Made by a program: the position numbers and the translations under genes. Of a stretch of 64,000 nucleotides of DNA, positions 7,381-58,330 are shown one piece after another; within the stretch, counting starts at the first letter, position 1, and the number at the start of each line of letters is the position of its first letter. The notes beneath the pieces were generated by a model that had not been told where the DNA came from, did no database searches, and worked only from the letters and a program-made list of their open reading frames with translations. The stretch comes from Eledone cirrhosa (lineage: Eukaryota): NCBI GenBank assembly GCA_964016885.1, contig OZ024743.1:355384001-355448000 (forward strand). Direction: 5' to 3'.

Positions 7381-7575
7381 AATCGCTGCTTTCACCCTTA
7401 ACGGGATCTTCTGAGTTTCAGAACATCCCGTTAAGGGTGAAAGCAGCGATTGTTTGCTTAAAATTTAATCTATTATTTTAATAAATATTTGCTCTATGGT
7501 TTTTTATCTATTTGATATATATATTATCCTTGTCGAGCCCTCTTCGGATTTTAATCTTCACATTTATTATTATCA
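7381..7575 (+). mobile_element. PLE 3' end fragment starting with a 71-bp fold-back (7381-7451) built from the CAGAAGA-type HHR
   Basis: AATCGCTGCTTTCACCCTTAACGGGAT...ATCCCGTTAAGGGTGAAAGCAGCGATT. Same family as 48905-49430, 50745-51090 and 57970-58330. Confidence 0.85.
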
Positions 7576-7699
7576 CTATATATATATATATATATATATA
7601 TATATGTGTGTGTGTGTGTGTGTGTGTGTGTGTGTGTGTGTGTGTGTGTGTGTGTGTGTGTGTGTGTGTGTGTGTGTGTGTGTGTGTAGTCGATCGATA

Positions 7700-7965
7700 A
7701 GATCCCAGAAGTCATTCGCTTAATGAGTGGGGTGGAGCTCATCAAATCGGACCGAAGAAACAATGTTGCCATTGGTCTTTCCAATTGCTAATACTAACTG
7801 TCGTTCACAATTCCAGAGACAGAAAGAGCAGCGTGAAATAAGTTTTCTTGTTCAAGGACAATAACATTTCTTGCTCAAAGACATAAGGCATGGCCCGGTC
7901 CGCGAATCGAGCTCACAACCTCAAGATTGCGAATCTCGAATTCTCTAACCACACAGCCACGCGCC
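7700..7965 (-). mobile_element. tRNA-derived SINE (GGCGCGTGGCT head); related diverged copy at ~59651-59960 (+)
   Basis: The minus strand has an A-box-like TGGCTGTGTGG and a B-box-like GCTCGATTCGC. Confidence 0.65.
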
Positions 7966-8134
7966 TACATAATTATATATATATACATGCTTATATACCC
8001 ACAGGTGCTCTTGCAAACATATGATATACATATAGTATACACACACACACACACACATATATATATATATATATATATATATATATATATATATATATAT
8101 ATATATATATATATATATATATATATATATATAT

Positions 8135-8925
8135 AATATATTTAGAAACACACAGATACATGCGGGGACACACATATACATGAATGCATCCACACCCAAC
8201 CGTGAGTTAATGGTGCCAACCTTACCGATGTTGCTCAATGAATGACTGGGACAGACCAATCCGGTTGAATTAGACTGAACCAGTATCAGAGTTAAAAATA
8301 CATTGTGAAGAGAGAAGAAACATTTAGATATAATTAGTAATAAAATGTATCATACCTAAACTGCTCCTAGATTCCTCGACTACGTAGTTTCGTGGCATAA
8401 ACAAAAACAATACATCATAAAGTTATAGAGTCCTTGCGAGGTCTGCCGACTTATCAAGAGGATACCTCATTTTACTAGCTTCAAGAACGCGTCTACACGA
8501 CGTGAGAAAGAATCCCAAAAAGCGGAGGGGGAGATAGTCACGCGATATAACGGTTGAGAAACAGAGCTAACCCTCTTATAACCCCGAAGAAAATACCACG
8601 GAGGCGGAGGGGGTATTCATATCGAAGCCGTAGAAGAGGTGGTGAAGGAGGCGAGAAGTATGAGTAATGGCAGCTTTCCAGCAGTCACCACACTTCAAAG
8701 ATTACTCGACCAGAGGGAGTTATGAACAATATATTTAGAAACACACAGATACATGCGGACACACACATATACATGAATGCCTCCACACCCAACTCTGAGT
8801 TAATGGTGCCAACCTTACCGATGTTGCTCAATGAATGACTGGGACAGACCAATCCGGTTGAATTAGACTGAACCAGTATCAGAGTTAAAAATACATTATG
8901 AAGAGAGAAGAAACATTTAGATATA
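8135..8925 (-). mobile_element. HHR-bearing non-coding unit with ~198 bp direct repeats (8135-8332, 8728-8925; period 593); retrozyme-like or tandem PLE pLTR
   Basis: The direct repeat is seen directly, the HHR lies between the copies, and (TA)n flanks both sides. Confidence 0.75.
8373..8462 (-). ncRNA. Type I hammerhead ribozyme with U3:A8 core and long stem II
   Basis: TCCTC-TTGATAA-GTCGGCA...TGCCAC-GAA-ACTACGTAGT-C-GAGGA. Stem I is 5 bp, stem III is a palindrome, and the cleavage triplet is GUC. Confidence 0.8.
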
Positions 8926-9879
8926 TGTATATATATATATATATATATATATATATATATATATATATATATATATATCACAAAATTTAATACAGAAATG
9001 GCTTCTAAATGGCTAGAAAAGTTTAATTCGAAGGAAATCATTAGACATATATATATGTATATATACATGTATATATATATATATATATGTATATATATAT
9101 ATATGTATATATATATATATATATATATATATGAAAAATATGAAAACATGGCGTGCTGCGTGGTTGCAAATGGGTTACATATGAATAAAATTAGTCCTTC
9201 ATCAGTGACCTTCCAGCCTTCATTGGTATTTCATCGCTTTAAAGACCATATACCTCTGGCTGGTGCGAGCAACGGCTAAAGACAGTCGTTGGGACACGTA
9301 AATAGGGGGAACGAGCGAGACAGTAAACAAACAAAGATGGTAATGCAACAAAAAGTGAGGAAGAAGGAGTCAAGTCCCTGAAATCGATGAACATAAGTTC
9401 TGTGAAATCGTGAACGAGATAGAATAAAGACCATCAAACCTGGTCGAAATGTGAGTAAGGAAAGAATTTCGCACAGGTCAAACGGGAGGGAGAATGAGTC
9501 AAATCCCTGAAATCGATGAACATAAGTTCTGTGAAATCGAAGACCATCTGACCTGGTCGAAGTGTGAGTGAGGAAAGAATCTCGCACAGGTCAAACGGAG
9601 GATGTAGGAGAGGGAGTAGCAGAGAGTGATATATACATAAACTCCAACGCAATTTTTGACTAAAAAGTGTAGGATTTTCAAGGTTATATGTATGAAGAGG
9701 TAGATGTATGGTGGGTGGTACATACAGATGTTGTAAATGTGAATGTGTATTGTGGTGTAGTGGCTGGAGTTGTGTGTTTGTATGTGCGTATGTTTGTGTA
9801 TGAGAGCAAGGATGAAATGTGGTTATAGGAACTGTGGAGAAAATTATGACCACTCGGAAAAGTAGTTCCAAAGCGGAAA

Positions 9880-10200
9880 GTTAAGATCTGCTCAATCCTG
9901 GTGCCTGATGAGACCTAAGATAGTGAGGTACTGAGTAGTGTGGGGGAACGGAGGTGACGAGCAACGGGAGTGTCTTTACCTAATCATATGTCCCTTAAGT
10001 ATTCGTCGAATCGGTCCGCCGAGGTCTGCCGTTTGTCCGATATACATGAACACCGGAGAGCATAGATGACGTTGGTGGAGGTGCAAGTGAAAGAGTGGTG
10101 AATTATAAAACAATGGTTCGTACCTGTGAGGGTGGTGAGGATTTTTATGTTGAGATAGATGTTATAGTGAGGATGGGAACAGGTACGGAAGTGAGAAAAC
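9880..10200 (-). pseudogene. Degenerate PLE GIY-YIG endonuclease fragment
   Basis: HHSFTCTSTNVIYALRC...ADRFDEYLRDI resembles the PLE motif FTC.S.NVIY.I.C...RF.EH.RDI. Confidence 0.7.
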
Positions 10201-10926
10201 TTTATAGGTTTCGACAAATATTAGTCATTTAAAATTTAATAGCACCAGCTGACTAAATTTAAATCATGCTTTCCAGCTCAGTCAAGATTGTGACACTATC
10301 GTCCATTCTAGTAAAAATGTATTGTTGTAGGAAACATAGGCGGGTACAGAGGTTTTAATAGGAATTTCTTGGAGGGATTTGTCCAGGGTCAATATTTAAT
10401 TTATGGCATCTTTTTAACTCTTGATATCTTCTGGTATGATATTAAAGAGAGCAAGCCCTCATAATGTGAAAGAGATAGGTCGTATATTTATTTATATATG
10501 TGTGTGTGTGTGCACGAGTGCGTGTGTGCGTGTTTGGTTGTGGTGATTGTTTGGTTTTGTGAGAGAATAAACATAAGTCACAATAACAATATGTTGAATG
10601 ACATACACACAGTCCCTCAAACATATACACACAGTCACACGTACATACACAAACACATACACACATAAACAGACACACACTCACACACACACACACACAT
10701 ATATATATATATATATATACATATATATGTGTGTCTCACATATAATATATTATACGCATTTACAAAAAATTGTAGAAGACAGTTTTAATATTTAACAGAA
10801 AATTGATATAAAATTAGAGCTAGTTTACGTATATATATATATATATATATATATATATATATATATATATATATATATATATACATATATATATATACAT
10901 TCACGTATCAACATCTATATATATAT

Positions 10927-56829: not shown

Positions 56830-56965
56830 GGCACAGGCATGGTTGTGTGGTTAATGACATAACTTCGGAACCACATGGCTCTGGATTCAGTCCCGGGGCG
56901 TGTCTTCTACTACAGCCTTGCATTTACCAATACTTCCTGAGCGGAATTTGGTAGACGAAAACTAC
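56830..56965 (+). mobile_element. Degenerate tRNA-derived SINE of another family
   Basis: GGCACAGGCATGGTTGTGTGG..GGATTCAGTCCC..GTGTCTTCTACTA..TTTGGTAGACG. A reverse fragment lies at ~59602-59636. Confidence 0.6.
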
Positions 56966-57087
56966 AATGTGTCCATATATGTGTATATGTATATATATAT
57001 TTATGTGTGTCTGTGTGTGTGCATACATATATATATATATGTGTGTGTATATATATATATATATATATATATATATATATATATATA

Positions 57088-57340
57088 TACAATATTAAAT
57101 AAATGGAAAACTATATTTATAAAACCATATTTATTTCATTATATATATTTCGGGGATATCATATTAACAATATGCTATGCCTTCATCCCGAAATATATAT
57201 AATGAAATAAATATGGTTTTATAAATATAGTTTTCCATTTATTTAATATTGTAAATATACTCCAAGTATTTGTCGAGTGCTTTTATATCAGTTATAAATA
57301 TTTACTAGTTGTAACCCAACAATTTTAAATATAACTTTAC
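57088..57340. mobile_element. Fold-back of the 20908 family (inverted repeat 57088-57253) turning inside the HHR, plus an ~87-nt tail
   Basis: Junction reads ...GCCTTC-ATCCC-GAAATATATAT. Confidence 0.9.
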
Positions 57341-57611
57341 ATATATATATATATATATATATATATATATATATATACACCTACATATAGGGGTAAAAAC
57401 CACCTTCGGTCACGAATGACCATGGGATTTGCATCTAGAAAGTTTCCCTCCGAAGCACAAGTCCAGGTAAGATTGTCTTATATATATATATATATATATA
57501 TATATATATATATATATATATATATATATAGTCAAAAGTTAAACAAGGTTCATTGATTAATCAATGAATCAATGAATATAGTTTTACAATAGATTAAAAG
57601 CACTCAACAAT

Positions 57612-57760
57612 GAAGTTTTCTGGGAAGTTTTCAGGGAAGTTTTCAGGGAAGTTTTCAGGGAAGTTTTCAGGGAAGTTTTCAGGGAAGTTTTCAGATAAAA
57701 TAAATTGATGGTTCAATTCCAGTCTTGGCAGTCACTGTCAAGACTGGAATTGAACCATCA
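57612..57760. repeat. 12-bp tandem (GGGAAGTTTTCA) x~7 followed by a 22-bp-arm hairpin (57706-57760)
   Basis: Seen directly. Confidence 0.9.
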
Positions 57761-57969
57761 GCACAGTTGAGGTATGTCAGACATCAATTTATTTTATCTG
57801 ATGGGGACGTACTGAGGAAACAGCACAGTACCTCTGAATATATATAATAAAATATATTTGATCACATGAATGTCTATATTTATTAATATTTTGAATTAAT
57901 ATATATATATATATATATATAAATATATATATATGTATATTTATTAAAATAACAAATATATATATATGT

Positions 57970-58330
57970 ATATTTATTAAAATAACAGGTTAAAGTTTAA
58001 GCAAAGAATCGCTGCTTTCACCCTAACGGGATCTTCTGCAACTAAAAATATCAATTATCTTCGCTTTTTTCCGTTCATTGCCAGAGAACGTCTTCACGAA
58101 CCAAAGTATATTCTTCCTGTTTTCCTTCCGTTGCAACGTTACTTCTGCGTTCACAGATTGATTTTTTTAGTTTCGGAAGATCCCGTTAAGGGTGAAAGCA
58201 GCGATTCTTTGCTTTAACTTTAATCTGTTATTTTAATAAATATTTGCTCTTGGGTTCTTATATATTTGATATATATTGATCCTTATCGAGCCCTCTTTGG
58301 ATTTTAGTTTTCGAATTTATTATTATTATT
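57970..58330. mobile_element. Spaced fold-back of the CAGAAGA-HHR pLTR family
   Basis: 57970-58048 is inverted relative to 58165-58243, with an ~80-nt tail. Confidence 0.85.

Follow-up and report, generated by a model that had tools for sequence, protein, structure and literature searches.

How do paired, inverted ends of the same element come to stand head to head inside simple (TA)n repeats, many times over within a short distance of the Eledone cirrhosa genome? The question is raised by the 64-kb stretch of DNA analysed here (the window), in which an earlier note had described more than 12 such palindromes as one series running from long Penelope-like elements (PLEs) to short hairpins, and had proposed that both arms are made in a single insertion event, with extreme truncation leaving MITE-like hairpins that encode a ribozyme on each strand. 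The palindromes are real, including every pair listed, and the Penelope-like origin and the continuity of the series are supported; the supposedly "copy-specific" variants and the ribozyme on each strand did not stand as described. The reading we favor, with a probability of roughly 0.7, is that the palindromes are head-to-head ends of Penelope-like elements in (TA)n, likely produced in one event by twin priming on one sense RNA.

Masked self-BLAST of the window recovered inverted pairs at all 14 of the listed places and, in addition, at the element that begins at 48905 (Table 1). As had been described, nearly all of the pairs adjoin (TA)n with the element 3' ends pointing outward, the exceptions being 22044, where the right arm is cut by another repeat, and 7381, where the left end has decayed. 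The two long elements share the layout attributed to them: the one at 14592 has a tail-less inverted arm (14597-14791), whose partner lies at 19153-19356, and a tailed direct end, and the one at 48905 has a tail-less inverted arm of 360 nt. No further copy of the 26291 pair was present in the fetched sequence, hence it has no family match. An Rfam scan of the window gave 298 matches, of which the 150 listed were microRNA-like or chance hits under the gathering score.

Table 1. Palindromes, elements and solo arms in the window
Feature	Position	Strand	Remarks
Family B hairpin	7381..7577	.	Left arm short, right arm tailed; centre falls on the start A predicted for the family
Family A hairpin, middle subfamily	14300..14491	.	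Left arm with 80-nt tail; only 3' half of hammerhead
Long Neptune-type element, 5'-truncated	14592..19395	+	RT and GIY-YIG, frameshifted
Family E hairpin	20499..20866	.	Hammerhead motif in both arms
Family F hairpin	20910..21345	.	Right arm tailed; both arms with hammerhead motif
Family A hairpin, young subfamily	21560..21746	.	At least 42 identical copies; lacks a complete hammerhead
Family H hairpin	21955..22184	.	Other repeat interrupts right arm
Family G hairpin, decayed	25512..25720	.	TATA box in parent copies, 30 nt ahead of the centre boundary
Inverted pair, 196-nt spacer holding a piece of another repeat	26291..26812	.	
Family A hairpin, old subfamily	43381..43583	.	Right arm tailed; short templated insertion at centre
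Solo family A arm, tail-less	45840..45898	+	
Family C hairpin	47590..47953	.	Right arm tailed; U3-A8 type hammerhead motif
Family C pair, 467-nt spacer	48045..48880	.	One arm beyond predicted start, partner ends near start
Long family B element, 5'-truncated	48905..51092	-	GIY-YIG piece at 50296-50745; CxCX5C linker; Hydra-like
Solo family E arm	51252..51470	-	Runs beyond predicted start; source of upstream sequence
Family D hairpin	52337..52775	.	Left arm tailed; both arms with hammerhead motif; centre at predicted start
Family F hairpin, older	57090..57340	.	Right arm tailed
Family B hairpin	57969..58330	.	Inner ends unequal; right arm tailed

Judged by sequence, the hairpins are ends of Penelope-like elements of the Hydra and Neptune clades, and the insertions sit inside (TA)n runs. 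The 14592 element gave Pfam hits to RVT_1 and GIY-YIG, and its translations contain the features that define Neptune (DKG, a CX2-5CxxC linker and CCHH in the endonuclease). The family A parent contains a 718-aa open reading frame in which RT and GIY-YIG-like motifs can be recognized by eye; the frame had no Pfam hit, its atlas neighbors partly carry GIY-YIG or RVT_1, and BLASTP of its protein against that of the 14592 element yielded no significant match. It conforms to Hydra as the two clades are defined in the clade descriptions of PMC8557442 (RWR as its RWK-like motif, DKT, a CxCX5C linker, no CCHH, a C-terminal GIY-YIG and a (TA)n target); among these marks, the 48905 element displays the CxCX5C linker only. 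Tandem or partial tandem pLTRs, an inverted 5' copy and a tail are found at the family A parent locus and in 20 long insertions, and a tandem array has a period of 3.54 kb. Coding sequence could be linked to families A and B and to the 14592 family, non-coding upstream sequence only to families C, D, E, F, G and H, and nothing to the 26291 pair.

Such palindromes are abundant. Family A hairpin centres account for 12,477 exact matches genome-wide, and 80 stretches of 10 kb placed at round coordinates contained 101 inverted pairs, distributed over 50 of the 80, versus a single hit in a mirror-repeat control; the latter was run with tandem-repeat masking, the unmasked version (421 hits vs 229) being spoiled by satellites.

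The arms of a hairpin are unequal, one of them carrying a tail of 20-100 nt, a feature that the earlier note had missed. Exactly one tailed arm, facing a tail-less one, was present in 135 of 137 family A hairpins; in family H, the tail asymmetry is absent from other copies. The lengths of the two arms are coupled. Arms that extend beyond the predicted transcription start described below make up about 16% overall (1,401 vs 8,763); when 20 loci with such an arm were inspected, 12 had a partner arm, which likewise ran beyond the start in 10 cases, was very short in two and ended at the start in none. Only a single arm was present in 7 of 20 long insertions, and the 48045..48880 pair in the window is an exception to the coupling; both observations, like the family H copies, weigh against the favored reading. 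This coupling supports the derivation of both arms from one RNA molecule and, together with the survey of centres, the proposed origin of both in one insertion event.

The centres do not lie at random depths, as extreme truncation would have it, but at two fixed points. For the first of these, 48 young-family insertions were followed in genome order, and in 45 of them the farther arm ends between -7 and +4 of one particular A, with 5 of the 48 arms overrunning it by 2-4 nt; in family D, where there are 312 loci, the first 50 all lack the parent base beyond this A. A TATA-like box begins 29-31 nt ahead of the boundary A in the parents of families A, C, D and G (four of the seven families), and a pyrimidine pair precedes it in all seven families examined. 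Families B and E lack a TATA box at -30, and the boundary of family F is poorly fixed. We infer from these sequence features that the boundary A is initiator-like and represents a predicted transcription start. In the family E hairpin of the window, the tail-less arm reaches this predicted start (~20661) and the tailed arm ends about 50 nt before it.

A copied RNA cap would leave one extra C. Among the first 100 family A matches listed, junctions with one free base had C in 21 cases, T in one and G in none, next to 39 loci blunt at the A, and the upstream base of the parent would give A, not C, at this junction. The extra base in family B was C in five, T in two and G in one, and family D had five unambiguous extra C in 50 loci. 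The corresponding test had a negative outcome for solo arms that abut (TA)n, with G in five and C in eight among the first 100 (257 in all).

Could one arm have been copied from the other, with a single cDNA folding over to serve as its own primer? For rotifer Penelope elements, self-priming with an antisense template has been proposed (PMC3846280), and several features of the hairpins would suit it: overlaps of 1-4 nt at 23 of 48 junctions, matched or nearly matched arms in some long cases (297/297, 82/93, 1976/1976), and the position of the family A centre in hammerhead loop II, beside a stem able to snap back. The reach of the arms at the centre points the other way, however, as the tail-less arm is the farther one in 21 of 48, with sequence absent from the tailed arm, and the tailed arm reaches farther in another 20; either arm can be the longer one, therefore neither is routinely copied from the other. 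Moreover, the blunt centres (11 of 48) and the common family D centre would leave a loop of 0-1 nt, back-copying would not end at one fixed tail-less site, and a capped sense template fits the extra C. We thus regard a fold-back origin, as the palindromes had been described in the earlier note, as unlikely. A more specific version, with fold-back at hammerhead stem II in family A, was dropped because the arms extend 10-12 nt past that stem.

The second fixed point is the predicted hammerhead cut, where a minority class of hairpins ends, often with an extra A. Family A includes 201 mini-hairpins near the predicted cut; by hand count, about 90 of the 100 listed stay within it (crossing by less than 2 nt), and the single extra base among these 100 is A/T in 14 and C/G in three, with a blunt class of 28 that CG microhomology or pausing at stem III explains equally well. 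In family D, the cut window had 48 matches (two crossing by 4 nt), obtained with a wider pattern where the strict one gave three loci, and equal control windows on either side had 0 and 13.

The motif of a putative hammerhead ribozyme was identified by motif scan in families B-G. In the family A parent, it was recognized by eye and by folding as a U3-A8 core split by the predicted start; the fold has the right topology with z = 0.2, Rfam did not recognize it, and family A hairpins lack its 5' half, the 5' core. Scanning of the 14 window hairpins located the motif on both strands in three, on one strand in four and in none of the remaining seven, which confines the proposed ribozyme on each strand, as a motif, to the first three. 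In the palindrome at 52381, the sole one folded for this, helix II pairing drops from 0.68-0.83 to 0.

Two cDNAs might also have been made with boundaries that reflect pausing of the reverse transcriptase in folded RNA, or trimming after insertion, instead of RNA 5' ends. TATA spacing in four families, an extra base that differs by boundary (C at the start, A at the cut) and nearly empty control windows make this improbable, even though the family A cut site coincides with the edge of stem III, the 28 blunt junctions there are ambiguous, a few arms exceed the start by 2-4 nt, and palindrome centres are unstable.

Relationships among copies bear on both the earlier claims and the mode of multiplication. 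The variants at 21641 and 43382, thought to be copy-specific, are subfamily markers, because thousands of copies, or all those fetched, share them: the 46-mer with the 21641 variant has 8,763 exact matches in the genome, and the 43382 variant was present in 20 of 20 fetched loci. Mirrored variants do not serve as proof either, since departures from the column majority were mirrored 10 times and unmirrored 120 times. Arms differ from each other at 1.26 positions per 47 nt versus 0.58 from the nearest other copy, an outcome that had been named as counting against a joint origin, but this comparison does not discriminate because thousands of copies have a common source. In the young subfamily, at least 42 copies of the 21560..21746 type are identical over all 186 nt including the centre (40 scored of 831 candidates), and there is one tandem run of four, as might be expected if hairpins were non-autonomous units multiplying as whole palindromes in a MITE-like or retrozyme-like manner. 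We consider this very improbable: centres are diverse in genome order, where that particular type accounts for one of 48 (and for two of the first 50 loci), hairpin ends are internal sites of the full element, and the upstream promoter box is missing from the hairpins. The resemblance to MITEs is one of shape only, the one-tail rule and the variation of centres between copies placing the hairpins outside that class, as the inverted pairs and the lack of the 5' core in family A place them outside non-LTR retrozymes.

Library or assembly chimeras are hardly credible: fold-back chimeras are a known sequencing artefact, and the one copy-specific centre tested was bridged by none of the reads or contig pieces listed, but arms of old hairpins are up to 25% different, ends fall at element-specific sites, strand-switch joints occur at places 1485-1492 (boundary A being 1489) in raw reads of two other samples, and joints and loose ends recur at ~20655-20661, both in contigs from other runs and in the raw reads of a further sample. 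Separately, sharp read ends at place 1496 in RAD runs lie on an AATT word and are a probable restriction cut, not biology, and a depth step in these runs is confounded by the same word.

We propose obligate twin priming as the best model. The protein of the element would cut both DNA strands, and both ends would prime cDNA on the same sense RNA, each cDNA starting at its own one of two fixed sites, to give one tailed and one tail-less arm. The transcript would begin at a promoter inside the terminal repeat, so that the RNA would have a priming module close to each of its ends. From the 5'-near module, both cDNAs would run off the capped end, producing the common hairpin; the smaller class may stem from priming on the 3' fragment left by the hammerhead, and the long elements with an inverted arm from priming at the downstream module of uncut RNA. 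Joining of the cDNA ends, through microhomology or as blunt ends, and fill-in would complete the insertion, in keeping with the 23 overlapping and 11 blunt centres among the 48. The hairpins themselves are likely dead ends that neither transpose nor act as ribozymes.

Elements of this scheme have precedents. The purified Penelope protein, anole Poseidon PAc, cuts and extends both strands in vitro at AT-rich targets, starts at two internal sites by which the tail is delimited, and is predicted to form a dimer (PMC11167929). That study leaves later steps open, does not tie the two sites to two arms and saw no use of cleaved RNA; ribozyme cleavage was dispensable in vitro and no RNA ends were found at the cut in anole data, which is counter-evidence to a role of cleavage, whereas the minority class here ends at the predicted cut. 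In L1 twin priming (bioRxiv 10.1101/2024.08.27.596794), as described there, both nicks prime on one RNA with joining by microcomplementarity, arm lengths correlate and internal duplication is possible; in L1, however, the internal position of the second primer is a matter of chance annealing and is seen in a minority of insertions, whereas the second site of the present elements keeps to a distance of 20-100 nt from the first, which makes each arm a mirror of the other.

The head-to-head layout and the tail are already known from the published accounts of endonuclease-bearing PLEs such as Pen2a_Av (PMC3846280, PMC8557442), which share the inverted pLTR copy, a tail of 30-40 nt or longer on one end, palindromes at the inverted junction and AT-rich simple-repeat targets. 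Those accounts concern long units and invoke self-priming on an antisense template or endonuclease resolution; the window hairpins, in contrast, are ORF-less and dominant, their one-tail rule is near absolute, and the centres in E. cirrhosa map to the predicted start and the predicted ribozyme cut. The Hydra clade as described in PMC8557442 matches the family A parent in ORF motifs and (TA)n insertion; that clade description does not include hairpin by-products, and family A adds a split U3-A8 hammerhead. The same motif types, U3-A8 included, are described for PLE minimal hammerheads (PMC4209133) and non-LTR retrozymes (10.64898/2026.07.22.740005), and pairs 100-700 bp apart on opposite strands have been noted in Schistosoma. 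Retrozymes, as described in the latter, are direct tandem repeats, unlike the inverted pairs seen here, in which family A lacks the ribozyme 5' half. A two-boundary record at the centres was not found in print, although supplements of the cited papers may bear on its novelty.

PMC8557442 names the origin of PLE inverted repeats and tails as an unsolved problem, and a cellular role of PLE hammerheads is described as unproven (PMC4209133, PMC11167929). The accumulation of centres at a predicted start and a predicted cut would help to explain PLE insertion: the junction statistics lead to a specific, testable model, in which each start site yields one arm, both arms share a template and synthesis runs off at the cap or the ribozyme cut, and argue against the published antisense self-priming idea (PMC3846280). 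They also offer a route to reading promoters and ribozyme activity from assemblies alone, and abundant hairpins of this type can be mistaken for MITEs or microRNA precursors. A broader proposal combines obligate twin priming, on sense RNA bearing a cap, with a fossil map of germ-cell starts and cuts at base resolution, with built-in brakes and with a source of double-stranded RNA; it is tentative and in our estimate somewhat short of even odds. If it is true, the promoter starts (through the copied cap) and hammerhead cuts of living germ cells are recorded in the genome, and ribozyme cleavage and the 5'-near priming module would act as brakes that divert most events to dead hairpins. Octopus is reported to show exceptionally high levels of hyper-editing and of near-perfect double-stranded RNA potential (PMC5625713); the composition of the window appears octopod-like, so such hairpins are a candidate source. 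Under the same proposal, some 10^5 palindromes could be a main source of the double-stranded RNA that feeds editing and small-RNA silencing in the lineage.

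Self-BLAST of the window with simple repeats masked recovered inverted pairs at all 14 places where the earlier note had read fold-back palindromes, and another within the 48905 element. These hairpins, pairs of Penelope-like element ends facing (TA)n, comprise at least eight mutually unrelated sequence families (A to I) as well as the family of the element at 14592. Across the 3.0-Gb animal assembly that holds the window, 80 10-kb stretches taken at round coordinates contained 101 inverted pairs against one mirror-repeat control, and 54 of the 101 were flanked at both ends by (TA)4 no more than 130 nt away. 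Extrapolated from these stretches, the genome would harbor roughly 2 to 4 x 10^5 inverted pairs, Penelope-derived only in part; a single family accounts for 12,477 exact hairpin centres. The hairpins belong to a known class of elements and are real rather than artefacts, since the arms of old copies have diverged by up to one quarter and other samples and runs show the same ends and joints. In two further samples of the species, raw reads end into (AT)n at the same pair of sites in the element, with strand-switch joints at 1485-1492, around the boundary base at 1489; joints at the family E boundary are likewise present in other runs. For the one copy-specific centre tested, no bridging sequence was present among the matches listed.

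Coordinates of the 14592 arm pairing, of other repeats in the window, and of two family A arrays elsewhere in the assembly
Position	Feature	Remarks
Window 19153-19356	Pairs with inverted arm of 14592 element	
Window 10796-12908	Second copy of 14592 family	Neptune-type, 5'-truncated, without inverted arm; long (TG/TA)n expansion in 3' region, resembling 18331-18853
Window 3903-4101	Palindrome, 97%	(TA)n in centre, not flanks; tail-to-tail layout
Window 46375-46680	Inverted pair, 98%	About a (CA)n(TA)n(TG)n core; palindrome of another kind
Window 57706-57760	55-nt palindrome	Adjoins short tandem run
Window 22176-22795; 62205-62793	Young repeat, two copies, 98% identity	First copy breaks into 22044 hairpin and has a small palindrome of its own at its start
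Window 4627-5640	Inverted, nested pieces of LINE-like coding fragment (frame 4762-5208)	Possibly the inverted 5' end of some other retroelement
Window 23779-25097	Minisatellite, unit 59 nt	About 21 copies, matches 94%
Window 55265-59572; 26582, 33228, 34559, 44934	Abundant short interspersed repeat	In both orientations, tandem in part; no relation to hairpin families
C1:91473175-91493800	Five family A units in tandem, period 3.54 kb, then inverted copy	Likely source locus layout
C18:18839451-18840276 (L004-L006)	Four near-identical family A hairpins, direct tandem, short (TA)n between	Probably local duplication via flanking repeats

A young family A arm used as query led to full-length elements, organized as tail, inverted arm, partial copy, terminal repeat, tail, 718-aa ORF and terminal repeat. 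The ORF contains RWR, DKT and CxCX5C but no CCHH, and thereby fits the Hydra clade as defined in PMC8557442; the 48905 element has the same CxCX5C linker. The 14592 element, with DKG, a CX4CxxC linker and CCHH, is Neptune-type, and thus two clades make the same layout. A search for coding parents of families C to H found none.

Hairpin centres pile up at one A, the predicted transcription start. Among rows of C1 in genome order, a few of which contain internal duplications and were parsed roughly, 59 have a tail-less arm, 48 of these with a nearby tailed partner, and the farther arm ends at -7 to +4 from this A in 45 of the 48 pairs. Family D has 312 such loci, and the first 50 all lack the parent base past the boundary. 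The boundary A is preceded by two pyrimidines in all seven families examined, and in A, C, D and two subfamilies of G the parents carry a TATA-like box starting 29-31 nt upstream of it; no box lies at that distance in family B or E parents, and F is ambiguous. Reverse transcriptases copy the cap G. A single extra C is preferred at the boundary: the added base is C in 21, T in one and G in none of the first 100 of 258 family A matches listed (39 blunt), C in five, T in two and G in one in family B (15 blunt), and an unambiguous C in five of the 50 family D loci; counter to this preference, solo arms have no excess (G 5, C 8 of 100). Some centres (L234, L100, L106, window 43430-43460) contain iterated short copies of nearby arm sequence, which resemble the templated insertions of polymerase-theta end-joining.

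A second class ends at the predicted hammerhead cut. Of 201 family A mini-hairpins near the GUC site, 100 were listed; by hand count about 90 do not pass the site by two bases, and 28 are blunt, ambiguously so owing to CG overlap. Single extra bases are A or T in 14 and C or G in three (hand count of the 100, with which a second pattern search agrees). The family D cut window has 48 matches, two crossing by four bases; equal flanking windows have 0 and 13. Capped and uncapped RNA ends would account for the switch of the extra base from C at the start to A at the cut, and pausing at stem III possibly explains part of this class.

One arm is tailed and the other tail-less in 135 of 137 family A hairpins, a rule that also holds in long two-armed insertions; families B, D, E, F and G show two peaks of 3' ends, which were not seen in family H. 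The tail of an anole element spans the interval from one reverse-transcription start site to the other, and its protein is able to cut and extend each of the two strands (PMC11167929). On the simplest reading, each arm would correspond to one start site.

The arms are also coupled. About 16% run past the start (1,401 versus 8,763 matches, from patterns of unequal length), and at 20 loci with a passing arm the partner also passes in 10, is very short in two, absent in seven and ambiguous in one, against about 9% passing partners expected under independent templates; it ends at the start in none. Both arms pass at two additional loci, and the 48045 pair in the window is an exception. Fold-back of a single cDNA, which the earlier note's palindromes evoked, is argued against because reach is mixed (the tail-less arm extends further in 21 of 48 hairpins, the tailed in 20) and many centres are too tight for a loop. 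One variant once read as copy-specific and mirrored sits within a 46-mer having 8,763 exact matches, and among the 137 family A hairpins, drawn from fetched sequence and hairpin-enriched by the searches used, deviations from the column majority are unmirrored 120 times and mirrored 10; arms differ from each other by 1.26 per 47 nt versus 0.58 from the nearest other copy. The two arms of a hairpin nearly always belong to one subfamily. A ribozyme on each strand holds, as a motif, for three of the 14 window hairpins, four having the hammerhead motif on one strand only and seven on neither. Family A hairpins retain only its 3' half, because the boundary falls within loop II, and in the 52381 palindrome the helix II pairing probability is 0.68-0.83 for an arm alone and 0 for the whole hairpin.

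Inverted terminal repeats, tails and junction palindromes were already published together with a self-priming hypothesis (PMC3846280), and the available part of PMC4209133 describes Schistosoma hammerhead pairs on opposite strands, 100-700 bp apart. The twin-priming reading, cap signature and cut-site class were not found among the papers listed in searches of largely open-access main texts, nor in the available passages of an octopus repeat annotation (PMC13282606), a curation guide (PMC8969392) and a Chlamydomonas study (PMC9977147). The element class is known, and the mechanistic record is new in part and more specific than the earlier proposal.

From the layout, tail rule, two boundaries, extra-base bias and coupling established here, we infer insertion by a dimer, twin priming and end-joining. 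The dimer would cleave both strands of (TA)n, and both DNA ends would prime at one module of one sense RNA, the first enzyme being displaced or followed by the second; both would proceed to the RNA 5' end or drop off, and end-joining would fuse the two products. The available part of 10.1101/2024.08.27.596794 describes L1 twin priming, which is similar in working but differs in that the second site is fixed in Penelope-like hairpins. A module close to the capped end would yield the common hairpin, a cleaved 3' fragment the small class, and a downstream module the long elements.
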